DNA of 64,000 nt from Patescibacteria group bacterium UBA3533 (lineage in GTDB: Bacteria > Patescibacteriota > Minisyncoccia > Phycocordibacterales > Phycocordibacteraceae), in NCBI GenBank assembly GCA_002376865.1, contig DFOU01000011.1, positions 16,969 through 80,968 of the forward strand, given 5' to 3'. Positions 6,859-47,760 of this stretch are shown piece by piece. Numbering within the stretch: position 1 is the first letter of the stretch; every line of letters begins with the position of its first letter. The notes below the pieces were generated by a model that was given only the letters and a program-made list of their open reading frames with translations, had not been told where the DNA came from and did no database searches. Made by a program: the position numbers and the translations under genes.

Positions 6859-7257
6859 CTAGCTCGTCGCTGTAGCGATCGGCATTTGCCGGAAATCTCC
6901 GGTTCTCTTGAGTGCATTTGCAACACACGTCACTTCAACAACTTGTGTTGCGTCCTTGAGAATCCATTCTTGCACAAGAACAAGATCAGCCCCAAGGGCC
7001 TTTGCCTCTGCCTCAACTTCGGCAAGAGCTTCCTTCCGGGCTAGGCGTGCAGTTTCAGAAACTGAGCGCACATGACCTTTCTCGAACAGGTTTCGAATAG
7101 AGCGGCCTAAACCACTCGTTCCCATACTGATTGCGGCTACGCCGACAACCACCTGAAGGGGTTCGTACCCTGCAGCAAGCAGAGCATAAAGTTCTGGACC
7201 GGTAAGCTCAGCGCTTTTTGTAGCACCGAGCTTGGACTCATGTTCTTCCTCTGACAA
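6859..7257 (-). CDS. YbjQ/UPF0145 (DUF74) family protein
   Basis: GYEPLQVVVGVAAISMG...EAEAKALGADLVLVQEW follows the YbjQ family pattern. TTG start preceded by AAGGAG. About 52% GC. Confidence 0.65.
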   Translation of the reverse strand: MSEEEHESKLGATKSAELTGPELYALLAAGYEPLQVVVGVAAISMGTSGLGRSIRNLFEKGHVRSVSETARLARKEALAEVEAEAKALGADLVLVQEWILKDATQVVEVTCVANALKRTGDFRQMPIATATS

Positions 7258-9444: not shown

Positions 9445-9725
9445 TAAATTTTCCCATCAAAATGATGTGGTTTTGCGCCAGCCAAGCTTACTGTGCCAAC
9501 AACATTACTTAAAAAATGTTTCTGTTTTTCATTAAGCTGCTTAAACAACTGATCTCCAACATTTTTCTTAATTAAATTAAGCCTTCTTTCACTTTCTTGG
9601 TCAAAGATTTCAAAAAATAAAGGGGTTGCACCTGAGCTTGTGGAGTAACGTGACGATGAGATAAAAAGCTCACTTGGAACTGAAGCGTAAATATTTGCGT
9701 CATCTAAAGGGAAGTATGGAATCAT
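9444..9725 (-). CDS. hypothetical protein (93 aa); possible partner of the PIN protein
   Basis: Stop overlaps the downstream PIN gene start (ATGA at 9444). No recognisable motif. Confidence 0.4.
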   Translation of the reverse strand: MIPYFPLDDANIYASVPSELFISSSRYSTSSGATPLFFEIFDQESERRLNLIKKNVGDQLFKQLNEKQKHFLSNVVGTVSLAGAKPHHFDGKI

Positions 9726-9728
9726 AAA

Positions 9729-10370: not shown

Positions 10371-10886
10371 CTACAACCCCGCAGCCAAAATTCCCTTATT
10401 CACCTCAAGTATCAAATCTTCTGTTTTGTCTACGTTAGCCTCCTTGTCCGCATACCCAAGTGCAACAAGTATTTCAAAAGCAATCTCTGCCTCTTCCCTT
10501 TCAAAATCTATATCTTCCTCTCCTTTTACAAGCGCCTCTAACCTTTCATACACTTTTTGCTGCACCTCGTGCTCGGGTAACAATCTCCCCAGAAGACCAA
10601 GTATGTTTGCATATACTTTTTTACGCTCTCCTGTAAGGGTAAAGGAGTATTGCCGTACTTGATCCATTCCTTTAAGGCGCCAATTATATCTTCCACGAAT
10701 AAGAGAATAGATACTGTGTGTCCCAGGCTGCGTGCATGCAGCAAACGTAGCGCCCGCCCGCTTTGCAGCTTGTGCAATTACACGAATCTTTCCCAAGTCT
10801 TGGGTAAAGATAATTGCCTCTACAGAGTCTTCCTTATTGGGACGAGCTTTTAGTACGAATCCTGGAGTTGTGTACGTCTCATGCAT
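10371..10886 (-). CDS. recO: DNA repair protein RecO-like
   Basis: N-terminal OB-fold-like segment (GFVLKARPNKEDSVEAIIFTQDLGKIRVIAQAAKR); 171 aa, reduced form. Confidence 0.5.
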   Translation of the reverse strand: MHETYTTPGFVLKARPNKEDSVEAIIFTQDLGKIRVIAQAAKRAGATFAACTQPGTHSIYSLIRGRYNWRLKGMDQVRQYSFTLTGERKKVYANILGLLGRLLPEHEVQQKVYERLEALVKGEEDIDFEREEAEIAFEILVALGYADKEANVDKTEDLILEVNKGILAAGL

Positions 10887-13800: not shown

Positions 13801-14337
13801 ACTTAGGTGGAGTGATTTAAATCCTTTATAGATAAGACCTTTATCATAGAGTGTTTTAAATGCCCACCACACACTCTCGGTATATGTTGGATCCATGGTT
13901 CGATAGTCATTGTCCATATCTACGAATCGTCCGATTCGCGGAATGAACTTCATCCAGTCATCTCTATACTGAAGCACTACCTTCTTTGCCTTCTCTACAA
14001 AGTTCTCAATTCCTACCTCTTCGATTATTTCCTGCTTAGTTGAAACACCAAACTCCTTCTCAACTTGTGCTTCAAGAGGAAGTCCATGACAGTCCCATCC
14101 CCAGCGACGCGGTACCGTATACCCCTTCATTGTCTTATACCGAGGAACAACATCCTTTAGAGTGCTCGCTAGTACGTGCCCATAGTGCGGGAGTCCTGTG
14201 GCAAATGGAGGTCCATCATAAAAAGTGAACGTCCCTTTGGGAGATTTTTTCTCTACAGATTTTTCAAAAATGCGCTCATTCTTCCAAAATTCCAGCATTT
14301 CTTCCTCTCGCTTCGAGAAGTCACTTTTGTCGCTCAT
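10879..14337 (-). CDS. ileS: isoleucine--tRNA ligase (type 2) with an inserted histidine-phosphatase (PGAM-like) domain
   Basis: PHYGHVL (HIGH), WTTTPWTLPGN (editing domain), KMSKKLKNYP (KMSKS), FGNWLKGGKDWSISRSRFWGAPLPVW. Unexpected segment of about 200 aa at nt 12259-12879 containing MRHAEGEHN, SPFLRTKQTAEII, GGESFLD..KRF and VTHGIGMEIL. Start taken at MSDKSDFSKREEEMLEFW. Confidence 0.9.
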   Translation of the reverse strand: MSDKSDFSKREEEMLEFWKNERIFEKSVEKKSPKGTFTFYDGPPFATGLPHYGHVLASTLKDVVPRYKTMKGYTVPRRWGWDCHGLPLEAQVEKEFGVSTKQEIIEEVGIENFVEKAKKVVLQYRDDWMKFIPRIGRFVDMDNDYRTMDPTYTESVWWAFKTLYDKGLIYKGFKSLHLSPLLGTELSNIEVAQGYKDITDFAVTVPLPIKGMNASLLVWTTTPWTLPGNMAAAVNPDFVYTKVKVTGDEKLDGTYIVSKEKLSLFEGMEYEVLEEMKGKDLVGKEYEPPFNYYLNEEIEGKENAWKIYAADYVTEDSGTGAVHLAPAFGAEDLELAQKEGVPIVHHVNKSGKFVKEVGDFAGMDAKPKDNHQATDIEIIKALAHAGKLFKKEKIEHSYPHSWRTDEPLLNYAMDSWFVNAPKITNQLVKENDKVHWVPKEVGSKRFGNWLKGGKDWSISRSRFWGAPLPVWENEEGDQIVLGGVEDLRAHVKKSGNTYMAMRHAEGEHNVKNVVSAHKDDPYKLTERGVKLAKETGAKLKVEGVTKIFASPFLRTKQTAEIIAEEIGLSKDEVVFDERLAELGFGDFQGKPIKDYFDFIEKDFTYETTIPGGESFLDVKKRFGEFMYEKEAQLQDEKILIVTHGIGMEILPAVVEGANSARSMEIHDKTHAEPGARVDLPFVALPHNANYELDFHRPYIDEIKLEKDGEEYTRILDVFDCWFESGSMPYAQQNYPYSNLDVFNPKGGLFSKSKGYPAQYIAEGLDQTRGWFYSLLVLGVGLFGKAPFENVVVNGTVLAEDGQKMSKKLKNYPDPMEIINKYGADAVRYYMLASPVSRAEDFSFSEAGVKETSSKVVGRLHNVLSFYNLYKDTVQRKEGTKHVLDTWIISRLNELVDQTTKGYEGYEFDKATRPLLDFLDDLSTWYVRRSRDRIKEGGEDAEHAMHTLRFVLMETAKVMAPATPFYAEYLYRELKEESDAESVHLCDWPEAGKIDQEVLDTMKEVRTIVSDALMMRQTAGHKVRQPLNALTLKKGISLTEEYQALIKEEVNVENIILDGEELKLDTELTPELKEKGMVREFIRAVQDARKKADFSPHDFAILTIAGNAAFLDAYKSEIMSVAGVKTIQRVQELPGGIEVDLGEKQLTINVVHA

Positions 14338-14363
14338 ATAAAGGATATAGTAGCAGGATGTAT

Positions 14364-14394
14364 AAAAAGTGAAAGACCGCACAATTGTGCGGTC
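14364..14394 (-). terminator. intrinsic terminator after the 14409-14660 gene
   Basis: gaccgcaca / tgtgcggtc stem followed by tttcacttttta on the minus strand. Confidence 0.6.
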
Positions 14395-14408
14395 CTCCCC
14401 AAAGATCA

Positions 14409-14660
14409 TCAAGCGGCTTGCGAAAGCCAGACATGGCCGGTGCCATTTTGCTGACGCCTCAGTCCACGTGCATTTAAAAATGCATCTTGAATGGAGACAT
14501 CGACCTGGCCTGGATCGGTGATGGTAATAACCGAACCTTCCATGGGGATCAATCCCTCCTTTTCACAGTGAATTTCAACAGGTCCCTTTTTCAAGAGCTT
14601 GTTGATGTCGCGCGCGAGCGTGCGCTGCGCACTTGGCCCATATGGACGACATTTCGACAA
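14409..14660 (-). CDS. small hypothetical protein (83 aa), GC-rich
   Basis: TTG start preceded by AAGGGAGGAGTG, its own terminator, about 50% GC. No recognised domain. Confidence 0.45.
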   Translation of the reverse strand: MSKCRPYGPSAQRTLARDINKLLKKGPVEIHCEKEGLIPMEGSVITITDPGQVDVSIQDAFLNARGLRRQQNGTGHVWLSQAA

Positions 14661-14710: not shown

Positions 14711-14743
14711 CAAAAGGAAAAGGTCGAGTATTAACACTCGACC
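14711..14743 (-). terminator. intrinsic terminator overlapping the 3' end of the 14731-14940 gene
   Basis: ggtcgagt / actcgacc stem with the stop codon in the loop, then ttttccttttg on the minus strand. Confidence 0.6.
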
Positions 14744-14940
14744 CCTCCCCGACGAATGAAGTGTGCGCGAAGCTGTTGGATTTCTACATCACGGGCAGAA
14801 TCCCCTGGCGGCGGAATAAATATCCCTGGAGCTTTAGTGCCTGTCTTTCTAACACGCACGTTGCCTACGTTGCCATTTAAATACTCAACACACTCTTCGA
14901 TTGTCGGGAAGTCCAGTTCAGGAATTTCTTTACTGGACAT
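14731..14940 (-). CDS. small hypothetical protein (69 aa), GC-rich, monocistronic
   Basis: AAAGGAGGAGAGA then ATG; extended -10 (TGcTATAAT) about 33 nt upstream; own terminator. Confidence 0.45.
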   Translation of the reverse strand: MSSKEIPELDFPTIEECVEYLNGNVGNVRVRKTGTKAPGIFIPPPGDSARDVEIQQLRAHFIRRGGVEC

Positions 14941-14969
14941 TCTCTCCTCCTTTGTAGAACCTCTAAAAT

Positions 14970-14985
14970 TAAATTATAGCACCCT
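14970..14985 (-). promoter_or_regulatory. extended -10 promoter element (TGcTATAAT) for the 69-aa gene
   Basis: Minus-strand gtgctataat immediately downstream of the argS stop. Confidence 0.45.
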
Positions 14986-16615
14986 ACATCTTCTCTGGAG
15001 CCTCTATTCCCAGAAGCCATAGTCCGTTTGTCATCGTTAGGACAAATGCCTCAATAAGCAGAAGTTTGTATCCCTCATACTCTCCTCCAAGGATCTTCTC
15101 TTTTGCATAGAAACTATTAAATTCAGAAGCAAGTTCTGTTAGGAATCCTGTTACGTGGTGTGGCTCATACTTTTCTTGTGCACGAGCAACAACCTCTGGG
15201 AATCTATACAGAATCTTCTCAAGATCATATGGCTGCTCTGGAGCAACTGCATCTGCATCATCTTTTGAAGAGTCAGCAAGGATTTTCTTTGCTCGTACGA
15301 GAGCGTACTGCAGATACGGCCCTGAATCTCCCTCGGTAGAAAGTGAGTTGTTTACATCAAAGACAATGTCTCCTCCTGGCTGCTGCCGCAGAATACTGTA
15401 CTTAATTGCAGCTACTGCTACTTTCCGTGCAGTTTCTTCATCAGAATTCTGCTCTTTTACTTTCTCTACAAGATTATCGATAAGAGACTTCGCCGTTACG
15501 ATATCTCCTGTTCTTGAGCTCATCTTTCCTTCAGAGAGCTTCATCAAACCATTTGAAAGGTGCGTGATCTTTTCTGCCTGCTCTGGATGAATCTCAGAGA
15601 GAGCTTCCTTGATTACCTTGAAGTACTCTGCCTGCTCTTTTCCAGTTAGGATGATCGATTGATTGTGCTCCCACCACTCGTCCTTGATAGTTTCAAGCCC
15701 AAGCTCCTTTGCTTCATACGTTGGTGTTCCCTGCTTTGTTTTAAATACTCGAGTATGTAGCCCCTTCTTTTCTCCCTCATATACGATAGCTCCATCACTC
15801 TCTACGAAAACTCCTTTTTTAATTCCTTCCTCTACCACCTTCATTCCAACAGGCGCTGACTCACTTTCGAAAATAAATCGATCTAATTTTATATCTAAAG
15901 TATCAAGAACTTCTTGCACTCCTTCTATTGAAATCTTCCTTCCTTCCTCATGCTCTTTCATGAGATCTTTGTCTTCTCCTGCATAGATAGCTTTATTGAG
16001 TGTATCTATCTCTTCTTTTGCAGATTCATTCTCTTCGTATTCTTTTGCACCAAGAGCATATGCTTCTCCAATTACAGCAGGAGAGAGCTCTTTCCCAAGT
16101 TTTCGCAGTCCATAGATGGCCTTTGCAGCATGTGGCCCCACATCTCCTCCATATGATTCCTTTTTAACTTCTGCTCCAGAGAATTGGAGAAGCCGTGCAA
16201 TAGATTCTCCAATAGTTGCCCCCATAAGGTGCCCAATGTGAAGCTGCTTAAATGCATTAGCATTTACATACTCCATGATCACTTTGTGATCTACATTATT
16301 AGTATTGCTTCCCCACAGCCTACCGAGTGATCCAATTACCTTAAGAGATCCCGTGAAGAACTCACGAGAGAGTTTGAAGTTAATAAACCCAGGACCTGCA
16401 ATAGATACTTCCTCCACAAATGGAAGGTCAATCTTTTTTACAATCTCTTCTGCAAGTTCCTTTGGATTTACTCCCCGCTCTTTAGCAAGAGTCATGGCTA
16501 TGTTTGTTGCATAGTCTCCATGACTTAGATCTTGAGGGTGCTCAAGATGTACTGAAGAAGCCTCCACATCTGCTGCGGCAGCTACTGCTTTTTGTAGTTC
16601 TTTTACGAGATCCAT
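14984..16615 (-). CDS. argS: arginine--tRNA ligase
   Basis: 543 aa, class I HIGH region (ANAFKQLHIGHLMGATIGESIARLL); ArgRS-like N- and C-terminal architecture. Confidence 0.8.
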   Translation of the reverse strand: MDLVKELQKAVAAAADVEASSVHLEHPQDLSHGDYATNIAMTLAKERGVNPKELAEEIVKKIDLPFVEEVSIAGPGFINFKLSREFFTGSLKVIGSLGRLWGSNTNNVDHKVIMEYVNANAFKQLHIGHLMGATIGESIARLLQFSGAEVKKESYGGDVGPHAAKAIYGLRKLGKELSPAVIGEAYALGAKEYEENESAKEEIDTLNKAIYAGEDKDLMKEHEEGRKISIEGVQEVLDTLDIKLDRFIFESESAPVGMKVVEEGIKKGVFVESDGAIVYEGEKKGLHTRVFKTKQGTPTYEAKELGLETIKDEWWEHNQSIILTGKEQAEYFKVIKEALSEIHPEQAEKITHLSNGLMKLSEGKMSSRTGDIVTAKSLIDNLVEKVKEQNSDEETARKVAVAAIKYSILRQQPGGDIVFDVNNSLSTEGDSGPYLQYALVRAKKILADSSKDDADAVAPEQPYDLEKILYRFPEVVARAQEKYEPHHVTGFLTELASEFNSFYAKEKILGGEYEGYKLLLIEAFVLTMTNGLWLLGIEAPEKM

Positions 16616-17876: not shown

Positions 17877-18278
17877 TTATTTTTTACATTTACATCCCTT
17901 TAAATTTGCTTGGTATAAAATTGCGTTTGGATCTTTTACGAACTTCCCATCAACCAACTCTCCTGTACGTGAATTAATTTCTTTGCATACCTCTTCCATT
18001 ATTGCCGCAGGCTCATATCCCTGCTTCTTGAGTGCCCCGATGGCAAAAACAATAATGTCAGCCCACGCATCTGCAATTTCTTCTTCTGGTGCCTCTGTGT
18101 CGCCAACAATTTCTTCTGCATAGTGAGCGGCGCGCTCTCGTGCAGTTACACTGTCATACTTCCCAGTGCTTTCTAGAAGCTCTTCAAGAATAAATGAGGT
18201 TTCTTTTTTGTGATTGAATCCTTTCTCGAGAAGCCCTCGCTCTTTATTCCAATCAATTATGTTTTCAAATACATTCAT
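17877..18278 (-). CDS. MazG-like nucleoside triphosphate pyrophosphohydrolase (all-alpha NTP-PPase)
   Basis: ELLESTGKYD...YAEEIVGDTEAPEEEIADAWADIIVFAIG with spaced acidic residues typical of the MazG/dimeric dUTPase fold. Adjacent to dut. Confidence 0.5.
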   Translation of the reverse strand: MNVFENIIDWNKERGLLEKGFNHKKETSFILEELLESTGKYDSVTARERAAHYAEEIVGDTEAPEEEIADAWADIIVFAIGALKKQGYEPAAIMEEVCKEINSRTGELVDGKFVKDPNAILYQANLKGCKCKK

Positions 18279-18281
18279 AAG

Positions 18282-18713
18282 TTATTTTCCAGTACTTCCA
18301 AAGCCCCCTTCTCCTCTCTCTGTCTCATCCAAAGATTCAACTTCCTCAAAATCAGCGTGCGCAACTTCTTGCAAAAGCATTTGCGCCACCTTATCTCCCA
18401 CATCAAAGGTGTGCGCCTCTGTTCCGTGATTGATGATACCCACTTTTATCTCTCCCCTATACCCAGCATCAATAACTCCCCCGAGCACTTTAAGTCCTCG
18501 CTTTATTGCATTTCCGCTCTTATCCCAGATAAGGCCCACATACCCTTCAGGAATCGCCATAGCAAGTCCTGTTGGCACAGCCTTATATTCTCCTGGACTG
18601 ATAGTTACACCTTCTGTGCTACAAAGATCCATTCCAGCATCATCACTGTGAGCAAACTCTGGCACTTTGGCTGCCTCATGGAGTTTCTGTACTTGTATCT
18701 TGAGCTTCTTCAT
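18282..18713 (-). CDS. dut: dUTP diphosphatase
   Basis: AGMDLCS...SGNAIKRGLKVLGGVIDAGYRGEIKVGIIN...GDKVAQMLL, the classic trimeric dUTPase motifs. Confidence 0.9.
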   Translation of the reverse strand: MKKLKIQVQKLHEAAKVPEFAHSDDAGMDLCSTEGVTISPGEYKAVPTGLAMAIPEGYVGLIWDKSGNAIKRGLKVLGGVIDAGYRGEIKVGIINHGTEAHTFDVGDKVAQMLLQEVAHADFEEVESLDETERGEGGFGSTGK

Positions 18714-18748
18714 ATCTGGATGTTCTGCTGTTTAGTTTCTCTATTCTA

Positions 18749-19441
18749 TCACGCTCTATTTTTTAGGATATTTTGCACCAGAGCCCATAATTCCTCATGA
18801 ATATCTTCCCGTGTTCGAGGCTTTCCACGCTGCGCACACGCAATTCTGTACCAAGCATTTAATTTCTTAACTATTGAAAGTGCTCTCTTTCGAGAATTTT
18901 CTTGGTATTCAAGACTCTCTTCCGTTGCGTCTTTCTTTCCTTTTGTATATTCCTTTCCTTTCTTTGCTTCTTTTAGGAGTTCTGCGGCAACTTTAACTGG
19001 CATGTCTAAATAGATAATGGCATCGGGGCGCGGAATTTTAAAAACACCATGTTCCATCTCATCAAGCCATGTAAGGAATGTTTTTAGTTTCTTTGCGTCT
19101 TGGATTTTCCCTCCTTGATGTATTTGGTTTGCACTTACATACCGATCAAGAATCACGGTATATCCTTTTTTCATCCAGTCTTCTATTTTCTTTTTTGATT
19201 CAAACCTATCTGCAGCATACAAAACCGATGCAATGTGCGGATCAGTCTTTAGGAAATCTCCATGGTCTCCAACAAGACACTCTCCTATTAGCTTCCCAAA
19301 GAAATTATTTTCGTAGTGAGGGAAATCCAGAGTACGTACAGGAATCTTTTCTTTTTTTAGACGTTTTAGAAGAAGTTCCGTTTGCGTTGCCTTTCCACTT
19401 CCATCTCCGCCATCCAGTACTATCAGTTTTCCGCGCTTCAT
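18749..19441 (-). CDS. tmk: thymidylate kinase
   Basis: P-loop GKLIVLDGGDGSGKATQ; about 230 aa. Confidence 0.85.
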   Translation of the reverse strand: MKRGKLIVLDGGDGSGKATQTELLLKRLKKEKIPVRTLDFPHYENNFFGKLIGECLVGDHGDFLKTDPHIASVLYAADRFESKKKIEDWMKKGYTVILDRYVSANQIHQGGKIQDAKKLKTFLTWLDEMEHGVFKIPRPDAIIYLDMPVKVAAELLKEAKKGKEYTKGKKDATEESLEYQENSRKRALSIVKKLNAWYRIACAQRGKPRTREDIHEELWALVQNILKNRA

Positions 19442-19498
19442 ATTGGAGCAATTGTACCTTATTTTGTTAATTTTTGAGCGTGGTAAAATTCTCTCTAT

Positions 19499-20344
19499 AT
19501 GAAGAAATATCTGAACCTGTTAGACGACGTATTAGAAAATGGAGTAGACCGAGAAGGACGAAATGGAACAACCCGTGCAGTCTTTGCACGCCAAGCCCGC
19601 TTCAATCTAGAAGATGGCTTCCCTGCAGTTACTACAAAGAAACTTGCCTGGAAGGCAGTAGTGTCTGAGCTCCTTTGGTTTATCGAAGGTTCAGGAGACG
19701 ATAATCGTCTAAAAGAAATTCTAGGGAAAGATAAAACCATCTGGAGCGCTAATGCGAATGCTGACTACTGGAAACCAAAGGCAAAATTCGATGGAGACCT
19801 TGGACGAGTGTACGGCGTGCAATGGAGATCTTGGCAAAAGCCCGATGGAAGTACAGTAGATCAATTGGCTGAGGTTATCGAGCGCATTAAAAATGATCCC
19901 TATGATCGAAGATTAATCGTAAGCGCTTGGAATCCAGGAGAGCTAGACCTTATGGCACTTCCTCCTTGTCATATGTTCTTCCAGTTTTTTGTAACTCCAG
20001 ATGAGTCTGGGAAGCCTGCAAAACTGTCACTGCATATGGTGCAACGAAGTTGTGATCTGTTCCTTGGAGTTCCATTTAACATTGCATCGTATGCCCTCCT
20101 TCTTTCTATGGTGGCGCAAGTAACGGGACTTAAACCATTTGAGCTTGTTATGAGCTTTAATGACCTACATATATATGGGGATCATATGGATGCAGTAAAG
20201 GAGCAGTTGAAGCGAGAGCCTATGGACCTCCCTACTCTTAAGCTTAATCCTGATGTTAAAAATATTGATGATTTCACAATGGATGATATTGAACTAGAAG
20301 GCTACAAATCGCACGACACCATAAAGGCAAAGATGGCGGTGTAG
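19499..20344 (+). CDS. thyA: thymidylate synthase (ThyA type)
   Basis: LLWFIEGSGD, RVYGVQWRSW, IVSAWNPGELDLMALPPCHMFFQFFV (catalytic Cys). Confidence 0.95.
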   Translation: MKKYLNLLDDVLENGVDREGRNGTTRAVFARQARFNLEDGFPAVTTKKLAWKAVVSELLWFIEGSGDDNRLKEILGKDKTIWSANANADYWKPKAKFDGDLGRVYGVQWRSWQKPDGSTVDQLAEVIERIKNDPYDRRLIVSAWNPGELDLMALPPCHMFFQFFVTPDESGKPAKLSLHMVQRSCDLFLGVPFNIASYALLLSMVAQVTGLKPFELVMSFNDLHIYGDHMDAVKEQLKREPMDLPTLKLNPDVKNIDDFTMDDIELEGYKSHDTIKAKMAV

Positions 20345-20368
20345 AATATAAAAGGAAAGGAGACGATT

Positions 20369-20899
20369 ATGGCTATCAAAATCATTGCAGCAATTGGAGA
20401 TAAGCGTCTCCTGGGAGTTGTTAAAGACGGAAAGCATGGTCTTCCGTGGCGAATTCCTGAAGACTCAAAACATTTTAGCCACAGCACAAATGGTGCGGTA
20501 GTTATTATGGGAAGATCTACATGGGAATCTTTGCCAGATAGGTTTAGGCCTCTTCCGGATCGAACAAACTTTGTTCTTACAAGAAATCCTGATTATAGAG
20601 CAGAGGGCGCTAGAGTTTTCCCTGGTCTACATGAAGCACTTGAGGTTGCAGAAACTTTAAGTGACAAGACCATTTGGATTATGGGAGGCGCTAGCATCTA
20701 CGAGCAGGCACTCCCTATCGTCGATGAACTCTCTCTTACAATTGTAGAGGAAGAGCTCCTTCCTCCACCAATGGGAGGAGAGGAGCGCATTCTCTTCCCA
20801 GAGTACGAGCATCTTTTTGAATGCATAGACTCAACTCCTCGCATGCGCTCAGACAATAAAAATATTCCATACCGCTTTCAAACTTGGAAGCGAAAATAA
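20369..20899 (+). CDS. folA: dihydrofolate reductase
   Basis: IKIIAAIGDKRLLG...GLPWRIPEDSKHFSHSTNGAVVIMGRSTWESLP; AAGGAAAGGAG RBS. Confidence 0.9.
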   Translation: MAIKIIAAIGDKRLLGVVKDGKHGLPWRIPEDSKHFSHSTNGAVVIMGRSTWESLPDRFRPLPDRTNFVLTRNPDYRAEGARVFPGLHEALEVAETLSDKTIWIMGGASIYEQALPIVDELSLTIVEEELLPPPMGGEERILFPEYEHLFECIDSTPRMRSDNKNIPYRFQTWKRK

Positions 20900-20902
20900 G
20901 GA

Positions 20903-20940
20903 AAGGGCTTGGAGTTATCTCCAAGCCCTTTATTCTTTTG
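20903..20940 (+). terminator. bidirectional terminator between folA and the convergent HAD-like gene
   Basis: aagggcttggag / ctccaagccctt stem followed by tattctttt. Confidence 0.6.
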
Positions 20941-21631
20941 CATTAATCCGCCTAAGCAATCCTGCCCAGTCTGCAATGTAGCCACAGTTCTTCGGACGAA
21001 TGAAGTCTGCGCTGTCTTTTGCATTGTAGTGATGCATGAAGAGCATTCGCAGAGTCGCAAGTGAATCATCTCCTGGTGCAAGCTGACGCTTCTTGTCATC
21101 TACGAATAGATCATATTCGTGAAGGACTTGCGTCTTATCTTTTGCACCAAACACCATTGGCACGTGAAGACCGTGCGCTTTACACCAATTCTCTACAACC
21201 TCGGCCGAAAAACCAGGTCCGCGAGAAGTAACGATGCTCACGTCATGTCCTGCTTCTACAAGTTCCTTGATCGCAGCAATTGCTCCAGGAATCTCAGGAA
21301 TATTCTCCGCATACTCAGGGCGCTCATAGAGCACTTGCTTCATAGCTTCATATTCCTCAGAAGTCACACTCAGGAGTGTTCCATCCTGCTGATGTGACTT
21401 ATCTTCAAGCACCCATTCTTTGGTGAAGGTATACAATGGCGTACGGCCACTGTATACAGCCACAATCATCTTGCGATATTCTTCAGAAAACGGAACCACA
21501 TTATCGTTCCCCAGATAGGGACCCTTCATGCTGTCACCATCTTCGAATTTGCCGTACATTTCCATGAGCACAAGACGACGAGCCTCATGCACATTGGCAA
21601 TGACGCCGGACCAATCAAGTCCTATTTTCAT
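20930..21631 (-). CDS. HAD-like hydrolase, possibly a 5'(3')-deoxyribonucleotidase-like enzyme
   Basis: N-terminal MKIGLDWSGVI (degenerate HAD motif I), IVTSRG (motif II), YDLFVDDKK (motif IV-like). Sits in the dNMP metabolism cluster. Confidence 0.35.
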   Translation of the reverse strand: MKIGLDWSGVIANVHEARRLVLMEMYGKFEDGDSMKGPYLGNDNVVPFSEEYRKMIVAVYSGRTPLYTFTKEWVLEDKSHQQDGTLLSVTSEEYEAMKQVLYERPEYAENIPEIPGAIAAIKELVEAGHDVSIVTSRGPGFSAEVVENWCKAHGLHVPMVFGAKDKTQVLHEYDLFVDDKKRQLAPGDDSLATLRMLFMHHYNAKDSADFIRPKNCGYIADWAGLLRRINAKE

Positions 21632-21671
21632 CTTGATACTCCTTTTTCTTCTGTGGAGAAGGTACCGTATC

Positions 21672-21702
21672 TAAATGAAAAAACAACCCGTGTGGGTTGT
21701 TT
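21672..21702 (-). terminator. terminator downstream of rplK
   Basis: aaaaaacaaccc gtgt gggttgttttttc, a hairpin with flanking A/T runs. Confidence 0.6.
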
Positions 21703-22876: not shown

Positions 22877-22914
22877 GATTTTAAAAAAGCCCTTCCGGGC
22901 CCTTACTTACTTGG

Positions 22915-22942
22915 AGTATAGCACTTATCTGCCTTAGGTCAA
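22915..22942 (-). promoter_or_regulatory. sigma70-like promoter for secE (TTGACC, 16 bp spacer, TATACT) followed by a short GC hairpin plus T6 in the leader
   Basis: Minus-strand ttgacc taaggcagataagtgc tatact, then gcccggaagggc tttttt, 12 nt before the secE ATG. Confidence 0.4.
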
Positions 22943-22959
22943 TAGAAAAGGACGGCCTG

Positions 22960-23325
22960 TTAGGGCCGTCCCACTTTCTTGCGATTGTAGATTTCCAGAG
23001 GACTTGTAGGGCCAGTAGGGCCAGACTTAGCTGGAACAACTGGCTTTTTCTGCGCAGCTGTAGCAAGCTCCTCCACCTTAGCGGCAATTTCCTCTGAGGT
23101 ACTCCCAGTGGCGTACGTTGAGAGAAAATAACCCCAGGAGTGCGAACCTTGCTTTACCCTTCCCCTTACACGCTTAACAAGATTATTATATGAAATAACA
23201 TCTCCAAAGATTTTGGGGAATTCTTCGTACAGAAGTCCTGCAACTTCTTCAAAGGACTTTCCTTCCATTATCTTTTTTGCAATGAATTGCAAAATTTCAT
23301 TGGTCCAAGAGATTCGAAATCCCAT
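22960..23325 (-). CDS. hypothetical protein (121 aa)
   Basis: AAGGAGG RBS, 6 nt spacer. Stop codon embedded in the ggacggccc / gggccgtcc terminator hairpin. No recognised domain. Confidence 0.45.
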   Translation of the reverse strand: MGFRISWTNEILQFIAKKIMEGKSFEEVAGLLYEEFPKIFGDVISYNNLVKRVRGRVKQGSHSWGYFLSTYATGSTSEEIAAKVEELATAAQKKPVVPAKSGPTGPTSPLEIYNRKKVGRP

Positions 23326-23369
23326 GAGAACCTCCTTCTTTTGCCTGCGCTTGGTATAGCACAGCCTAT

Positions 23370-23407
23370 TTACAAAGAAAAGGGGCGCCTCAAAAAGAGA
23401 CGCCCCT
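23370..23407 (-). terminator. intrinsic terminator after the GC-rich 306-aa gene
   Basis: aggggcg / cgcccct stem, then ttttctttg on the minus strand. Confidence 0.6.
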
Positions 23408-23426
23408 GTTTGCCGACTGGTGAAAG

Positions 23427-24347
23427 CTAGGCTTTCACTTTCGGCTTCTTGAAAGTATTCGGAGGTTGCGGCGACTTGCCTTTGGTGGCAATCGTACGCT
23501 GCCGATCGAGCTCAGCACGCGCAGCCTTCTTGGCAGCAGCTTCAGCCCGTGAACCCTTCTTCTTGGGTCCGGCTTTGTGGAGCGAAACGACATTGTCGTT
23601 CCTGCCACCGAAGCGACCGTCATAGAAGCGCTTGTAGAGCCCTTCGAGACGGCGATTCACGCCTTCATTCGCCTGGTCACGATACTTCGTGACGAGAGAG
23701 CGAAAGCGCTGGCGCGACTCCGGCGAGAAGGATTCCGGATGCTCACTCGCATGGCCGATCAGCCAATGCATCGTCTTGTCCACATCCCTTTCAATCGTCT
23801 GCTCGATGATATCCAGAGTGCGAACGGTAACGAGCTCCTTGAGTTCGTCCATCTCGACGGAAGAATCGTAGGCTTTGCCGCCCTGGTTCGTAAGGCGAAC
23901 CTTGCGACCGGTTGCCGTCAGCACGATGATGCTGGCGTCTTCAGGCAGGAGCCAAAGCTCCTCTCGAGAAGTCACCTTCCCGCTGCGCTTGACGGTGCCG
24001 GCGTCGATCTGCTCGGCGCTCGAATTGTTCGGAGCATACACTCCGTGCTGAGCGACCTGTGTGTCCTTCACGCCGTAGCCGGTATGCACGAGCACGATGA
24101 TGTCGTTCCCCGCACCTTTCTCCGAAAGATGCGGTTCATCCCCGTGCAGGAAAAGCTGCTCGAACGGCGTATGCTGGAGCTTGCCGTAAAAACGAATGAA
24201 TCGCTCCCAGCCGCCAGACTCTCGATTGCCCAAATACAGAGCACTCGTGCTGTTGGGCGTAAGACCAGAGATTCTGATCCCAGCCGTAGGCGTAGCGTCA
24301 GAGAGAATGGTGATGGCGTTCGCGGTATTCGAAACGGGAACTTGCAT
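23427..24347 (-). CDS. hypothetical protein (306 aa), strongly GC-rich (about 58%), Lys-rich basic C-terminal tail
   Basis: ACAGGAGGGTTCC then ATG. Flanked by terminators on both sides. GC-rich third codon positions. No confident domain assignment. Confidence 0.55.
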   Translation of the reverse strand: MQVPVSNTANAITILSDATPTAGIRISGLTPNSTSALYLGNRESGGWERFIRFYGKLQHTPFEQLFLHGDEPHLSEKGAGNDIIVLVHTGYGVKDTQVAQHGVYAPNNSSAEQIDAGTVKRSGKVTSREELWLLPEDASIIVLTATGRKVRLTNQGGKAYDSSVEMDELKELVTVRTLDIIEQTIERDVDKTMHWLIGHASEHPESFSPESRQRFRSLVTKYRDQANEGVNRRLEGLYKRFYDGRFGGRNDNVVSLHKAGPKKKGSRAEAAAKKAARAELDRQRTIATKGKSPQPPNTFKKPKVKA

Positions 24348-24377
24348 GGAACCCTCCTGTGAAAAAAGTTTCGAAGA

Positions 24378-24407
24378 TCAAATAGAAAAGAGGACCTCAT
24401 GTCCTCT
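24378..24407 (-). terminator. intrinsic terminator after the SIMPL-domain gene
   Basis: agaggac ctcat gtcctct hairpin, then ttttctatttg on the minus strand. Confidence 0.55.
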
Positions 24408-24445
24408 ATCTAATACTATTATACCACCTGTGTAGTATTTGTCAA

Positions 24446-25249
24446 CTATCTGATTTCGTACGTAATATTTACGCGAGCGGTAATCTCACTCTCTCCTACT
24501 GGGATTTCAGGTGTTGCACTTCCTCCCTTTGCATACGCTCCATCAAATGAAGCCTCGTACATAGGGTATCCGTATCGATCACTGCTCTCCCAGAAGCCAA
24601 CAACTCGCACAAGACTTACCCCAAGATCCTTTGCAAGGGTTCGAGCCTTGTCTTTTGCTTCTTTAATAGCCTCTTCTCGAGCTTCAGCTTGAATCTTGTC
24701 TAGATCATCGATCTCGAAGTTTGGTCCGTGAATGTTTTGTACATTCATCTCTCCAAGACCTCCAAGAACCACCCCTACTTGGTCTAGGTCCCGAATTTTC
24801 ACCGATACACTCTGACTTACCTCATACCCACTAAGTACCTGCTCTCCTCCCCTACACGATACACCCGGCAGACATGTTGTCTGAAGGTAGTCATACTGAG
24901 GATATACATTGTATGAATTTGTCTTGATATCCTTGTCTGCAATATCCTGATCATCAAGGTGTGCAAGCACTGAGCTTATAAGCTCTGTTGTCTGCGACTG
25001 TGCTGACGCAACAGTGTCTTCCTCAAAAGAAACCGTGAATGAGATTGTTGCAATATCTGGCACTGCAACCGCCTCCCCCACTCCCTCAACTGAGATAGTG
25101 TTTGTGGCAGGAACACCACTTCCGATAAATCGAAGCTCCATTAATCCTGCTAATGTTTGCACTGCCAAAAATGCAGCAAGGAGAAGAAATACTGCAGTTA
25201 CTGCATTGTTTTTCTTATACTCCACAATTTTTTCAAATATTTCTTTCAT
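24446..25249 (-). CDS. SIMPL-domain (DUF541, YggE-like) periplasmic protein
   Basis: Signal/TM anchor, then SVEGVGEAVAVPDIATISFTV...QSVSVKIRDLDQVGVVLG...EAREEAIKEAKDKARTLAKDLG. Confidence 0.7.
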   Translation of the reverse strand: MKEIFEKIVEYKKNNAVTAVFLLLAAFLAVQTLAGLMELRFIGSGVPATNTISVEGVGEAVAVPDIATISFTVSFEEDTVASAQSQTTELISSVLAHLDDQDIADKDIKTNSYNVYPQYDYLQTTCLPGVSCRGGEQVLSGYEVSQSVSVKIRDLDQVGVVLGGLGEMNVQNIHGPNFEIDDLDKIQAEAREEAIKEAKDKARTLAKDLGVSLVRVVGFWESSDRYGYPMYEASFDGAYAKGGSATPEIPVGESEITARVNITYEIR

Positions 25250-25326
25250 ATGCGGGCAGTATATCAGTTTGGTTTACTTTTGTATTTAGTGCAGGTATGG
25301 TGGCACTAGAAAGAAAGGAGGTTCTC

Positions 25327-25761
25327 ATGGAACTTACAGAGACCATTATCGACCTGCCACCTGAAGAAGACTCTGATGAGTTCCTTCGGGTGAGAAAATG
25401 TGAGTTTGACCCAAACTCAGGTATTGAAACTGAGTATTGGATTCAACGAGTTGCACCGATTGAGGGAGGTCTTATCACTGTCCTTGGTAGTGCAAGATAC
25501 ACAGAGCGTGGGTTCTTGCTTCTTGTTGAGAAGATCATGCCCCACATAAAGCCGAAACTTCTTGCAGGGAATCCAGATGGCACCTTTCAGGTGACATATG
25601 AATTCCATGGAGGGAGAGACAATTACAGACTTCGCAGAACTACAGGAAGCGGAGCTCTGTCGGATCAAATGGTTCTTTCAAAAGAAGAGCTCAAAACAAC
25701 AGTGGAGGCATTGTCGTGGCTAGAACTACTCAGAGCATTGGTGCGAAAACTTGCCCGATAA
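25327..25761 (+). CDS. hypothetical protein (144 aa)
   Basis: GAAAGGAGGTTCTC then ATG (MELTETIIDLPPEE...). The start context is near-identical to that of the 22960-23325 gene. Confidence 0.45.
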   Translation: MELTETIIDLPPEEDSDEFLRVRKCEFDPNSGIETEYWIQRVAPIEGGLITVLGSARYTERGFLLLVEKIMPHIKPKLLAGNPDGTFQVTYEFHGGRDNYRLRRTTGSGALSDQMVLSKEELKTTVEALSWLELLRALVRKLAR

Positions 25762-25967
25762 CAGGCAATACGTATGAACTTTTTCTTGTCTCTGATCCGG
25801 GTGAAAGGTGTGCGATGACAGAAGTTGTTGGCACCACAAGATCTGGGACGAAGTTTAAAGTAACAAGCCTTCCTCTGGAAATTGATAAATGGAGGTCAGG
25901 ACTTGTTCTTGGACTTAAGTCCTCAGCACCTCCTAGGGGGCTGTAATAGAAATATTACGGCCTCTTT

Positions 25968-26477
25968 TTATTTATAGAGCTCTACTGTCTTTGCCACCTC
26001 CTCACAAATACCATCAATACACTCTAGTTTTTGAACTTCTTCTGCATTTACCCATGTATGGTCATCAAAACACCCCTCCTCAAGAACCACATCTCCACTT
26101 TTATATGAGACAGCAAGTTTAATAAGCACTACAGGAATACCGTCTGGCCGAATAAAGGTGTTGGAGTTAATAAATTTAAAGTCGTCATTTAATTCAACAC
26201 CTGCCTCTTCCATTGTTTCTCTTTTAAGGAGAGCTTCTACAGAATCGAGATAATCGAGCACTTCTCCATTTAGACGAGTTGGATGCTCTAGATCAAAATC
26301 TTGCCACTCCATCTTTCCTCCTGGTGTTGCCCACCTTCCAGGGTGCACCTTTTCAGTTTCTGAGCGCTTTAACAAAAGACATCGTCCATCTTCTTTTCGG
26401 TATACGAGTGCATTTGCAACAAAATAAAAGAGCTTATCTTTTTTTGCCTTTTCTGTGCTGATTTCTTTTGCTGGCAT
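25968..26477 (-). CDS. NUDIX hydrolase
   Basis: Nudix box GGKMEW...LKRETMEEAGV. Confidence 0.8.
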   Translation of the reverse strand: MPAKEISTEKAKKDKLFYFVANALVYRKEDGRCLLLKRSETEKVHPGRWATPGGKMEWQDFDLEHPTRLNGEVLDYLDSVEALLKRETMEEAGVELNDDFKFINSNTFIRPDGIPVVLIKLAVSYKSGDVVLEEGCFDDHTWVNAEEVQKLECIDGICEEVAKTVELYK

Positions 26478-27103
26478 TATAGTGAGACGCTACTTACAAC
26501 TTCTTCTACTGTTTGTAGATCTTCAAGATCTTCTATATCAAAGTCTTCCATCCAATTTTCTACTGCAATGTCTCGTAGCGCTACAAGAACCAAGAAATCC
26601 TCAAGGAAAATTCCATACGTTACCTCTACTGTTGCTTCAAATCGCTCATTTACAATTCGATACGCTTCCCTCTCTCCTATAGTTACTACTTCAAAATCTT
26701 CAAGAGATTCTGGGTGCAAGTCAGATGGTGTAAGCGTTACCTTTTCTAAGAGAGCTTGCTCTTTGTCTCCTGTTTTAAATGCGTGAACACTAATGCTGTT
26801 TGAAATTACACTTGGTTCTTTTGAGTAGAATCCTAGACGCCCTTCAACTATTGAAGAGAGTAGCGGGAGCGTGTCTATAAATCCATTGGGTGCGGTAAAT
26901 GAGATTGGATCTGTACTACATGCTTCAAACTCACACTGGGGGCCTGTGCGTCCTACTGCAGAACCATCTGGGCAGATGCGGGCTTCAAGCGTACAAGCAA
27001 TGGGTCCTTCAGGAGCGCTTCTGTCCCGAAGTGCATTTTGATAAAGAAAACTACCGAGCCCTAATAGAATAATGAGTACAACACCAAGGAATAATTCTTT
27101 CAT
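26477..27103 (-). CDS. membrane-anchored/secreted hypothetical protein with a Cys cluster
   Basis: Start at MKELFLGVVLIILLGLGSF (TM); CTLEARICPDGSAVGRTGPQCEFEAC. Confidence 0.45.
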   Translation of the reverse strand: MKELFLGVVLIILLGLGSFLYQNALRDRSAPEGPIACTLEARICPDGSAVGRTGPQCEFEACSTDPISFTAPNGFIDTLPLLSSIVEGRLGFYSKEPSVISNSISVHAFKTGDKEQALLEKVTLTPSDLHPESLEDFEVVTIGEREAYRIVNERFEATVEVTYGIFLEDFLVLVALRDIAVENWMEDFDIEDLEDLQTVEEVVSSVSL

Positions 27104-27138
27104 TCTGTAAGTATACTTGCTCACGGCAAATATAAAAT

Positions 27139-27167
27139 TTGACACTTATATTGTATATATGCATAAT
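27139..27167 (+). promoter_or_regulatory. sigma70-like promoter (TTGACA, 17 bp spacer, CATAAT) for the 27207 gene
   Basis: tttgacacttatattgtatatatgcataat; correct spacing; about 40 nt before the ATG. Confidence 0.5.
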
Positions 27168-27206
27168 CTAGATTAGAAACATCAGAAGCAATCAGGAGAT
27201 GCCAAG

Positions 27207-27584
27207 ATGGCAGAGTTTCAACTTATAGACCTTGGTGAAGGAAACGGTGGGGACGGCGAGGTGCGGGACAACTTCAGAGACGCACTGCGTGATCTTTATG
27301 CTCGCATCCAACATGTTCATGAACACAGAATTCTGACACAGCAGTGGCTGGAAACAGCTATATGGATTCGCATAACACACACTGTCACCGAACTGACTGG
27401 GCCAATCTATTTCTATGATGCACGTGATATCGCGCACCATTATGGTCTTGTTGATGATGGCGGGAAAACCATCAAAGACGATGTGCAAGAGCCTGATGAG
27501 GATATATTACTCGAAGCGGCCTTGTTGTGTGCTGCCCAAGGCACCGCCAAAGAATACATCGAGAATCTCAAGGCCGTAGCTTGA
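27207..27584 (+). CDS. hypothetical protein (125 aa), GC-elevated
   Basis: CAGGAG RBS, own promoter and terminator (27599-27640); about 50% GC. Confidence 0.5.
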   Translation: MAEFQLIDLGEGNGGDGEVRDNFRDALRDLYARIQHVHEHRILTQQWLETAIWIRITHTVTELTGPIYFYDARDIAHHYGLVDDGGKTIKDDVQEPDEDILLEAALLCAAQGTAKEYIENLKAVA

Positions 27585-27598
27585 GCAATGCTATTGGC

Positions 27599-27640
27599 CA
27601 AAAGGCCGCCCTCTTTTTGTGGCGGCCTTTCATAATAATT
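27599..27640 (+). terminator. intrinsic terminator
   Basis: aaaggccgcc ctctttttgt ggcggccttt. Confidence 0.65.
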
Positions 27641-47155: not shown

Positions 47156-47175
47156 TAAGGCTATTGTACCAAATA

Positions 47176-47212: not shown

Positions 47213-47231
47213 GCTTGCCGTCCACTTGAAG

Positions 47232-47684
47232 TTAGCGATAGCGGCCACTGCCGTAGTAGCTGGTGCGGCACGCAGGATGGCGATCCCAGCGAGTCACACA
47301 TTCGAAGCGATCCTCATGGAGCATCACGTCGAACTCTTCGGCCACACACGGGCCACGACGACGCTGGTTACAGCGAGGAATCGTGACAGAACGCCACTGT
47401 TCTTCGCCCTCCAGGCGCACCCAGACGATGTGGGCCGCATCACTCATGTGACGAAGCCGGTCCGAATGCATCGCTCCAGGTCGCCCCAAGATGGTGCAGT
47501 GGCCGCGGACATACCCTTCAGCTTGCGTGGTGCAAACCTCGAAAGGTAGTCCGGAGCGAAACTGGATGTTCCCAGTGTCGCCGAAGTTGAAGAAGTTACG
47601 GGCATCGCCCGAACCAACTTCGGCTGTGGTTGCGCACCCTCCGAGGAGGGTGAGCGCGGCAAGTAAAGGTACAAGATGACGCAT
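47232..47684 (-). CDS. putative lipoprotein (150 aa), about 60% GC, Cys-rich
   Basis: GGAGGG then ATG; signal peptide with lipobox LLGGC; composition sharply different from its neighbours. Confidence 0.55.
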   Translation of the reverse strand: MRHLVPLLAALTLLGGCATTAEVGSGDARNFFNFGDTGNIQFRSGLPFEVCTTQAEGYVRGHCTILGRPGAMHSDRLRHMSDAAHIVWVRLEGEEQWRSVTIPRCNQRRRGPCVAEEFDVMLHEDRFECVTRWDRHPACRTSYYGSGRYR

Positions 47685-47760
47685 GTCACCCTCCATTCAT
47701 TAGTGAATACTGTGTATATTATATAACTTTACTATGTTTTTGTCAATATAGATACTTCGT

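Follow-up and report, generated by a model that had tools for sequence, protein, structure and literature searches.

Shine-Dalgarno-led single-gene units among core genes that largely lack Shine-Dalgarno sites in a Tara Oceans Patescibacteria genome, two of them GC-rich throughout their orthologs

Why should a minority of the genes on a bacterial chromosome be preceded by strong Shine-Dalgarno (SD) sites when most of their neighbors have none, and why should some of that minority also be far richer in GC? The question is raised by a 64,000-nucleotide stretch of the genome of Patescibacteria group bacterium UBA3533 (contig DFOU01000011.1), here called the window, whose first letter is position 1. 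A first-pass annotation, centered on positions 22,960 to 27,640, proposed that the SD-led, GC-elevated genes form a family of mini-cassettes acquired from a higher-GC donor such as a host bacterium. The reading we favor, at a probability of roughly 0.6, is a leaderless or coupled core genome that carries a flexible complement of SD-led, self-contained single-gene units.

The window has a GC content of 42.5% and comes from a metagenome-assembled genome (MAG) of Paceibacteria type, in the UBA2103 group, from Tara Oceans; its proteins are found in the TARA_078 mesopelagic assemblies. Its NusG matches the one from Patescibacteria group bacterium UBA2103 (DCYT01000004.1, locus L006) at 100% identity and those of L007 (complete genome CP174360.1, same group) and L008 (MAG NORP156) at 91-93%, with remoter matches in Kaiserbacteria, Zambryskibacteria and Paceibacterota MAGs. 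Gene order is kept in relatives, running acylphosphatase-UppS-RluA ... NUDIX-SIMPL-secE-nusG-rplK-DHFR-thyA-tmk ... SHMT-ArgRS-LeuRS (the last three being serine hydroxymethyltransferase and the arginyl- and leucyl-tRNA synthetases). Clade-level comparisons used 80 nusG loci and 80 dnaA loci from relatives, with crude gene calls; the dnaA loci were taken from a metagenome scan, come from relatives of at most 71% identity, and served solely as an independent clade-level test set.

Inspection of the starts in the window confirmed that the housekeeping genes named as SD-less in the first-pass annotation, and most core genes with them, have no SD. A TAnnnT -10 box ending 5-9 nt upstream is found at 23 of 75 open reading frame (ORF) starts, compared to 7% of all ATGs (p=9e-10), and its distance to the start peaks at 6 nt. 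As this is the spacing expected when transcription starts on the A of the ATG, the peak points to leaderless mRNAs. The -35 boxes of these leaderless-type promoters are poor, with one to four of six positions matching. Examples of such boxes, with their distance to the start, are as follows.

ruvB (49673): TATAAT, 6 nt before the ATG
SIMPL: TATACT, 8 nt
start at 42368: TATAGT, 8 nt
pilB (47820): TATTAT, 6 nt

Several other genes, namely nusG (after secE), NUDIX (after a 208-amino-acid (aa) gene) and a 133-aa gene (after LCAT), overlap or abut the preceding stop codon and are probably translationally coupled. Genes of either kind would need no SD. In L006, two divergent leaderless-type promoters even lie within one 44-nt spacer. 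Among the relatives, the TAnnnT box accompanies about 31% of gene calls at the nusG loci and 35.5% at the dnaA loci, and an SD core accompanies just 5-10% in the two sets.

Strong SDs were found 5-9 nt before the starts at 796, 7257, 14660, 14940, 23325, 24347, 25327, 27207 and 47684, where they had been reported. SD strength and gene GC are correlated within the window (Spearman -0.27, p=0.017), as the proposed link between the two implied. The statement that SD-led insertions are GC-elevated has to be narrowed, since it applies strongly to two genes only, 23427-24347 (GC 0.57) and 47232-47684 (GC 0.60), whose GC at third codon positions (GC3) is 0.68 and 0.63 versus 0.335 in core genes. It applies mildly (0.49-0.53) to the five genes at 796, 6859, 14409, 14731 and 27207, and it fails for the genes at 22960-23325 and 25327-25761, which at about 0.45 are near the window average of 0.425. 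That native genes are largely SD-less likewise stood for the named housekeeping genes, with good SDs nevertheless present at rplK (22128), DHFR (20369) and the genes at 34029, 43744 and 44419.

The claim that several cassettes have their own promoters and terminators agreed with a promoter scan, which found TTGACA-16-TATAAT at 24445-24418 (12/12), TTGACA-17-CATAAT at 27139-27167 (11/12) and TTGACC-16-TATACT at 22942-22915. Intrinsic terminators follow the 306-aa, 121-aa, 144-aa and 125-aa genes described below, and terminator-like sites numbered 15 in the scan against 4.2 +/- 1.8 expected. Rfam and ARAGORN place no RNA gene at the GC-rich spots and give six tRNAs, all elsewhere in the window. 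The idea of a single cassette family did not hold, as neither the proteins nor the non-coding flanks share similarity, apart from one 16-mer in the flanks. No credible family in Pfam, NCBIfam, PHROG or PADLOC gives the orphan cassette proteins a function, the sole family match being a borderline one of a 132-aa protein to YbjQ_1.

The SD-led genes are concentrated in DNA that turns over between relatives. Nucleotide comparison aligns the window to its relatives in blocks that leave gaps at accessory genes.

14.38-15.0 kb: region of an 83-aa gene and a 69-aa gene
20930-21631: NT5C, absent from L004 and L008
22.93-24.45 kb: 121-aa and 306-aa genes
25.3-25.97 kb: 144-aa gene
27.1-30.1 kb: 125-aa gene, LCAT and 133-aa gene
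30.95-31.4 kb: 112-aa gene

The genes in these gaps are all SD-led except LCAT and its coupled 133-aa partner. Between 13.4 and 34.3 kb, when the gene calls of the source are used, an SD precedes 6 of the 10 accessory genes compared to 3 of the 18 core genes (p=0.035); a hand count that takes the SD-preceded ATGs at 23325 and 25327 as starts gives 8 of 10 versus 3 of 18. Measured against L006, the median nucleotide identity of SD-led genes is 0.735 versus 0.93 for non-SD genes (p=0.007), in a background of 92-98%; it is the blocks that diverge or are missing that hold the SD-led genes, rplK excepted. The slot between SIMPL and secE illustrates the turnover. SIMPL abuts secE directly in L004 and L008, and across 71 loci the spacer is mostly about 70-300 nt, with some 20 lineages having 350-4332 nt that hold unrelated, often SD-led ORFs. 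In L007 the occupant is an unrelated GC-rich SD-led 274-aa gene, and other SD-led ORFs occur there in L010, L014, L015, L036, L048, L054, L077 and L081. We considered whether such occupants are diverged members of the 306-aa family and rejected this, with an hhalign probability of 0.2% for the L007 and L010 genes; just a weak tail match, to L059, was seen. The view that the cassettes are not native is borne out in part: they are accessory single-gene units, patchy in relatives, but the two GC-richest are positional orthologs.

The association of SDs with GC-rich genes is real and holds clade-wide. Among 44 low-GC nusG loci there are 28 segments whose GC lies at least 0.11 above the local value, and in 9 of them the longest ORF is SD-led, against 0.96 +/- 0.96 (maximum 4) in random segments; 42 independent dnaA loci gave 6 of 23 against 0.42 +/- 0.65. 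Base composition is not the cause of this enrichment, because the 15-nt upstream windows are AT-rich (mean GC 0.41), and these windows hold the SD motif in 15 of 51 cases and the complementary motif in 0 of 51. SD-led genes also have a GC3 higher by about 0.05, both among widely shared genes (p=4e-5) and among rare ones (p=0.008). Recognizable members of the GC-rich SD-led class elsewhere in the clade are DHFR and ThyA, genes resembling ThyX and dCMP deaminase, and a number of lipoproteins, so that some GC-rich SD-led genes have plausibly been transferred.

The most informative case is the 306-aa gene between SIMPL and secE, which is laid out as follows.

23427..24347, minus strand: 306-aa orphan gene, GC 0.57, GC3 0.68, with SD AGGAGGG at 24352-24358
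24418..24445, minus strand: promoter TTGACA-16-TATAAT with TG, 12/12, beginning 1 nt after the SIMPL stop codon
24389..24407, minus strand: leader hairpin with U-run, between promoter and SD
23381..23407, minus strand: intrinsic terminator, 11-bp stem with 8 GC pairs plus T-run; orthologs have an equivalent hairpin

In the GC profile the gene appears as one sharp spike of 0.56-0.62 over 23400-24300, with non-coding DNA of 0.37-0.42 on either side. Three matches to the family came from a word-index search among 5.8 billion proteins, and six from a full HMMER profile search of 1.84 billion representative proteins. In all seven genomes checked (the window, L001, L003, L086, L089, L090 and L091) the gene lies between SIMPL and secE/nusG, with protein identities to the window of 65% in L001, 63% in L003, 39% in L086 and 34% in L091; it is missing from L004, L006, L007 and L008. 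The promoter is conserved in L001, L003 and L091, which together with the window have in common the order promoter, hairpin, SD, gene and terminator, the SD being weak in L091. The layout recurs in L086, where the short contig shows a -10 box but lacks a clear -35, and the genes of L089 and L090 are SD-led. A 48-aa Lys/Arg-rich SD-led ORF was also seen in L089, a higher-GC relative, at 1601-1747, between its 306-aa-family gene and secE.

Five orthologs retain the leader hairpin, six of its pairs showing compensatory changes. It lies at most a few nucleotides from where the 5' end is expected, and a similar hairpin before secE is placed in the same way; a second, weak helix could bring a U-run together with the SD. 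This arrangement suggests that the hairpin may be a 5' stabilizer or an attenuator. The secE leader itself (22881-22942, minus strand) consists of the TTGACC-16-TATACT promoter (22942-22915) and a short GNRA-loop hairpin with a U-run directly before the ATG, with no SD. The same secE promoter-hairpin module is present in L001, L003, L004, L007, L008, L086 and L089-L091, and its hairpin, too, could be a 5' stabilizer or attenuator.

The unusual composition is common to all orthologs of the 306-aa gene. Each is GC-richer than its surroundings, the paired values being 0.58/0.43, 0.59/0.46, 0.61/0.45-0.48, 0.55/0.44, 0.65/0.55-0.57 and 0.43/0.36-0.39, and in five low-GC genomes the GC3 is 0.63-0.77 versus 0.30-0.37 in the adjacent SIMPL. 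Codon use is the inverse of that of core genes, with GGC at 50% vs 4%, CCG at 57% vs 9% and GCA at 4% vs 55%; codons ending in A are nearly missing and codons rare in core genes are favored. A check on codon usage thus confirmed, for this gene and for the lipoprotein gene described below, that preferences are inverted relative to the core. The number of synonymous substitutions per site (dS) lies at 0.95-1.09 for the three closest orthologs and at 1.25-2.5 for the others, compared to 0.84-1.33 for SIMPL. The ratio of nonsynonymous to synonymous rates (dN/dS) is about 0.25-0.4, which means that the 306-aa gene is a real protein under constraint. With synonymous sites saturated and GC3 still high, the GC-richness is a stable trait of the gene rather than a leftover of foreign composition. 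It must be maintained, since neutral amelioration should be complete at such divergence, and because the sharp GC boundaries are confined to the ORF, a cause at the coding or mRNA level is favored over a regional one. Candidates for the maintaining force are biased gene conversion, codon-level regulation, mRNA stability and repeated import from an unsampled pool.

The N-terminal half of the 306-aa protein is beta-rich, and the protein also has a helical bundle and a tail rich in Lys, which hints at binding to nucleic acid; the family shares, besides that tail, the motifs GGWERF, LVLVRTG and SREELWLLPE. Structure models reached a predicted local distance difference test (pLDDT) score of 50 with three sequences and 59 with eight, being confident only for the helical bundle at about residues 166-245, and a Foldseek comparison of the model to the PDB retrieved nothing at E <= 0.001. 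An antisense ORF at 23577-24362 (plus strand) was examined as an overlapping gene and rejected, as the synonymous saturation of the sense strand would destroy its protein; it arises because third codon positions in general avoid A. This ORF and a second antisense shadow at 46980-47549 (plus strand) could be miscalled as genes.

The second GC spike of the window, at 47151-47700, is a lipoprotein gene, and the SD-led start reported at 47684 is correct.

47232-47684, minus strand (unit 47232..47746): 150-aa lipoprotein gene, GC 0.60, with SD GGAGGGTGAC at 47685-47694 and a perfect promoter TTGACA-17-TATAAT at 47718-47746

The plus-strand ORF at 46980-47549 was rejected as a gene, being the antisense shadow of this one. 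The lipoprotein has four homologs only. Orthologs lie between pilB and tsaE in L093 (same contig as L091) and L095, where they are SD-led (GGAGGGCGAC and GGAGGGTGAC, respectively) and have GC values of 0.55 and 0.53 versus about 0.38-0.44 in their neighbors. As with the 306-aa gene, the composition is kept at saturated dS, GC3 being 0.44-0.63 in the lipoprotein genes versus 0.32-0.33 in tsaE. Between pilB and the lipoprotein promoter, at about 47762-47793, we also observed a 32-nt perfect palindrome, CTACGTAATTAACTACGTAGTTAATTACGTAG, which looks like a putative operator; a similar palindrome occupies the same place in L095.

The first-pass annotation had further drawn attention to an identical 16-nt initiation region at the starts 23325 and 25327. 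The identity is exact: AAGGAGGTTCTCATGG occurs exactly twice, at 23322-23337 (minus strand) and 25315-25330 (plus strand), with 0.07 occurrences expected in shuffles even with up to two mismatches allowed. Within the 16-mer, however, AAGGAGGT matches the canonical anti-SD and the ATG is the start codon, and with only about 5 of the 16 bases left unexplained, the shared start context argues only weakly for a common origin. Neither the flanks nor the proteins of the two genes are related. The first-pass annotation had suggested a search for the shared region in related genomes; there the form GGAGGTTC-N(1-4)-ATG is seen again at several further SD-led orphan genes, in the closest relatives only. 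The two units are as follows.

22960..23325, minus strand: 121-aa orphan gene, GC 0.445, with SD AAGGAGG at 23331-23337, five nt before the ATG
22949..22972, minus strand: intrinsic terminator of the 121-aa gene, 9-bp stem with 7 GC pairs plus T-run, overlapping the stop codon
25315..25761, plus strand: 144-aa orphan gene, ATG at 25327, with SD AAGGAGG at 25315-25321
25935..25966, plus strand: terminator of the 144-aa unit, 14-bp stem plus T-run

Among the relatives compared, the 121-aa gene is present in L006 only, and its protein matches nothing in Pfam, PHROG, PADLOC or NCBIfam. On either side of the unit stands a copy of GTGCTATAC(C/T), which is the secE promoter's -10 region; the 121-aa gene is driven by one of the two and secE by the other. 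The 144-aa gene is absent or replaced in L004, L007, L008 and L091, and its nucleotide identity to L006 is 0.48-0.83. Public gene calls start the 121-aa gene at 23268 (102 aa) and the 144-aa gene at 25297 (154 aa), at ATGs without an SD; an ATG with AAGGAGG before it at ideal spacing is found 19 codons upstream of the former call, and another 10 codons downstream of the latter. A second small ORF is possible in the 144-aa unit at 25716-25946 (plus strand), before the terminator; it would have 76 aa if it began at a GTG, which has GGAGG upstream, and 43 aa if it began at the ATG at 25815.

The unit of the 125-aa gene is laid out as follows.

27111..27633, plus strand: 125-aa unit, ORF 27207-27584, GC 0.49, with SD AGGAG at 27194-27198
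27139-27167, plus strand: promoter TTGACA-17-CATAAT of the unit
about 27602-27632, plus strand: terminator of the unit

The unit is missing from L006, which has a 44-nt spacer at that point although the flanks are about 90% identical. The unit, about 543 nt long, is lodged precisely within the -10 region of the leaderless promoter of the 208-aa gene, and its end recreates a TATACT box; the flanking copies read GTGATACGAcACAGA and GTATAC-TTACAGA. The protein has two homologs, at 61-64% identity, in L096 and L098, each with a TTGACA promoter, an SD and a terminator, in two neighborhoods of unrelated genes on contigs of about 48% GC. Judging from these placements, the 125-aa gene does move. Other genes on the L096 and L098 contigs mix leaderless-type and SD starts, which suggests that these contigs, too, are Patescibacteria. 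Imperfect direct repeats of 9-15 nt flank both the 121-aa unit (GTGCTATAC) and the 125-aa unit (GT(G)ATAC..ACAGA), and such short repeats would fit either target duplication or microhomology-mediated insertion.

The remaining SD-led genes that we characterized in the window are the following.

14409-14660 and 14731-14940, minus strand: 83-aa and 69-aa genes, between LeuRS and ArgRS
20930..21631, minus strand: NT5C-like 5'-nucleotidase gene (Pfam PF06941 match), absent from L004 and L008
30978..31316, minus strand: 112-aa orphan gene, absent from L004, L007, L008 and L091
796..1071, plus strand: 91-aa orphan gene, SD context AGGGAGGTTCCTTATG, GC 0.53
6859..7257, minus strand: 132-aa gene with TTG start, GC 0.52, promoter TTGACC-17-TACTTT at 7318 and the weak YbjQ_1 match

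The 83-aa block is about 0.5 identical to L006 at the nucleotide level, with flanks at 0.92-0.97, and the 69-aa gene is retained in L006 at 0.86 identity, with a weak match in L004. No homolog of the 91-aa gene was found in the 80 dnaA loci, which come from relatives of at most 71% identity. The plus-strand ORFs 14756-15022 and 18210-18800 were judged to be spurious antisense ORFs rather than genes.

Taken as a mechanism, the reading we favor would run as follows. Core genes would be transcribed from -10-dominated promoters, with mRNA beginning at or within about 3 nt of the ATG, or would be coupled to the upstream gene. A minority mode would consist of leadered genes with a canonical SD, concentrated in the flexible genome, i.e., among small, fast-evolving and lineage-restricted genes. 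Several of these are self-contained and monocistronic, with a consensus -35/-10 promoter, a leader of about 20-70 nt, AGGAGG placed 5-8 nt ahead of the ATG, and an intrinsic terminator at the end, and are wedged into intergenic or promoter regions between core genes. Related strains gain, lose and replace such units, most likely by DNA uptake and recombination within Patescibacteria. The elevated GC of the two strongest cases is a stable property of the genes, whose third codon positions avoid A and favor G or C, and this codon use has lasted, at one fixed place in the chromosome, while synonymous divergence reached saturation.

Several points weigh against this reading. The leaderless initiation of core genes is read from promoter geometry only, and SD/anti-SD pairing is assumed for the window's organism, no 16S 3' end being present in the window or the fetched loci. 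The division between modes is not clean, as rplK and DHFR are core genes that use an SD and LCAT at 27691 is an accessory gene that has none. Across the 80 nusG loci, an SD precedes 12% of singletons versus 6-10% of core genes, a modest difference without significance (p=0.2) in crude calls that include spurious ORFs. No recombinase was found that could account for gain and loss, the junctions having just short imperfect direct repeats, and repeated re-import from an unsampled GC-rich pool could, in principle, also yield a persistent GC3.

How far do other explanations account for the same observations? Recent acquisition of the GC-rich units from a higher-GC, SD-using donor such as a host bacterium, with composition not yet ameliorated, would explain why the codon usage of the 306-aa and lipoprotein genes resembles that of a high-GC organism, why the units are patchy among close relatives, why the clade-wide class includes transfer-prone nucleotide-metabolism genes (DHFR, ThyA, ThyX-like, dCMP-deaminase-like) and why the 125-aa gene has the GC, about 0.48, of the other genomes that carry it. 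Yet the searches among 1.84 and 5.8 billion proteins returned no homolog outside Paceibacteria/Patescibacteria-like contexts; for the three proteins searched, matches are few (6 for the 306-aa protein, 4 for the lipoprotein and 2 for the 125-aa protein), every one that was looked up lies in such a context, and the 306-aa members and lipoprotein orthologs among them all sit in the same chromosomal slot. The GC offset, moreover, follows the genome that carries the gene (0.43 where the genome has 0.38, and 0.65 where it has 0.56), and dS is saturated, like that of the neighboring gene, with GC3 high in every lineage. For the two GC-richest genes the best matches fall inside the lineage, an outcome that the first-pass annotation had named as refuting its view, save that the odd composition is common to all orthologs; recent import is disfavored already for these two genes and is improbable overall. 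Against the possibility that the pattern is an artefact of mis-assembly or contamination, of wrong start calls or of chance G-rich motifs in GC-rich DNA, orthologs from other samples show the same SIMPL and secE junctions. The genome is indeed metagenome-assembled, and the ORF calls are heuristic, with 23577-24362 and 46980-47549 having proved to be shadows. However, the 306-aa gene is found on eight contigs from NCBI, JGI/IMG, Logan and ENA, seven of them with the same neighbors, and the lack of the complementary motif in the AT-rich upstream windows speaks against chance, so that we regard an artefact as hardly credible.

Somewhat less improbable than recent import, though still doubtful, is that the units are moron-like cargo from phages, plasmids or other mobile elements of Patescibacteria, with the SD, promoter and terminator as portable signals. 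Phage morons of the Hendrix type are single genes with their own sigma-70 promoter and factor-independent terminator, often of different base composition, and the 306-aa, 125-aa and lipoprotein units resemble them in having their own promoter and terminator and lying between genes that are adjacent in relatives. The three different neighborhoods of the 125-aa unit and the short imperfect repeats around the 121-aa and 125-aa units agree with such an origin. In contrast to morons, the window's units lie in a bacterial chromosome among core genes, with no prophage; ten cassette proteins scanned gave no PHROG match, IMG/VR scans with four cassettes found no contig encoding relatives, and no integrase, transposase or phage gene occurs among the Pfam-annotated neighbors. 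The two GC-richest genes also look vertically inherited, being held at one locus across deep divergence. A further proposal, unlikely but the least so of these alternatives, is that Paceibacteria possess a second expression dialect, stably inherited and selected rather than a vestige of foreign origin, in which consensus promoter, leader (in some cases with a 5' hairpin), strong SD and G/C-ending codons shunned by core genes serve fast-evolving lineage-specific genes. If true, the dialect could allow switching between leaderless (70S-type) and SD-led (30S-type) translation, or could tune lineage-specific proteins via tRNA supply or mRNA stability.

Other known systems resemble the SD-led units in part. 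Integron cassettes are typically promoterless, have attC sites and form one array beside intI; the window's units are likewise small single-gene units varying between strains, but they have their own promoters and terminators and are scattered over at least six sites, with no integrase among the Pfam-annotated neighbors. Of the marks of insertion sequences and miniature inverted-repeat transposable elements, imperfect direct repeats flank two of the units, and no terminal inverted repeats, transposase or multiple copies were seen. Compositionally atypical genes are read under the amelioration model as recent horizontal transfers, and the likeness in GC3, codon usage and patchy distribution is clear; no drift to the genome value is seen, however, with dS at 1 or more between positional orthologs, and a donor is not detectable. 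The flexible genomic islets and replacement hot spots of marine bacteria are a further parallel, as the slots SIMPL|secE, pilB|tsaE, LeuRS|ArgRS and NUDIX|SIMPL vary in content between strains, between flanks that are 90-98% identical. The islets here differ in being single genes of 0.3-1 kb and in being GC-richer than the core, the usual trend for accessory DNA being the reverse.

Genomes reported to mix leaderless and SD-led genes include those of Actinobacteria and Deinococcus (GeneMarkS-2 'group C', PMC6028130) and Mycobacterium (PMC3898074, PMC4633059). The likeness lies in a -10 box at a fixed short distance from the start for many genes and an SD on others; the organism studied here differs in being one of the Patescibacteria, in having an SD at about 5-10% of gene calls only and in the tie of its SDs to flexible, fast-evolving genes. 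Full-text literature searches returned no paper linking leaderless initiation or SD usage to the CPR (candidate phyla radiation) or Patescibacteria.

Some observations elsewhere in the window stand apart from these questions. Compared to the near-identical L006, the region 18282-21700 shows mosaic divergence, with the DHFR and NT5C block at 65-79% in a 92-98% background; the dUTPase gene at 18282-18713 is missing from L006, which has an extra 704 nt between tmk and thyA. The leucyl-tRNA synthetase (10879-14412, minus strand) contains an internal histidine-phosphatase (PF00300) domain, with the same match in L004, L090 and L091. AT-rich islands, comprising three genes of GC 0.31-0.35 at 8899-10337 and one gene of GC 0.29 at 54748-55107, lie below the genome average, where the GC-rich genes lie above it.

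For the organism and its relatives, default leaderless or coupled initiation would change how genes are called in Patescibacteria, which are mostly uncultured and host-dependent and whose expression has barely been studied. The stable GC-rich codon use of the two strongest cases, despite saturated dS, runs against the equation of atypical composition with recent transfer and calls for caution when horizontal transfer is called from composition. If SD-led units bounded by promoters and terminators do mark the flexible pool, a cheap sequence signature could find strain-specific genes, and these are the likeliest mediators of host interaction.

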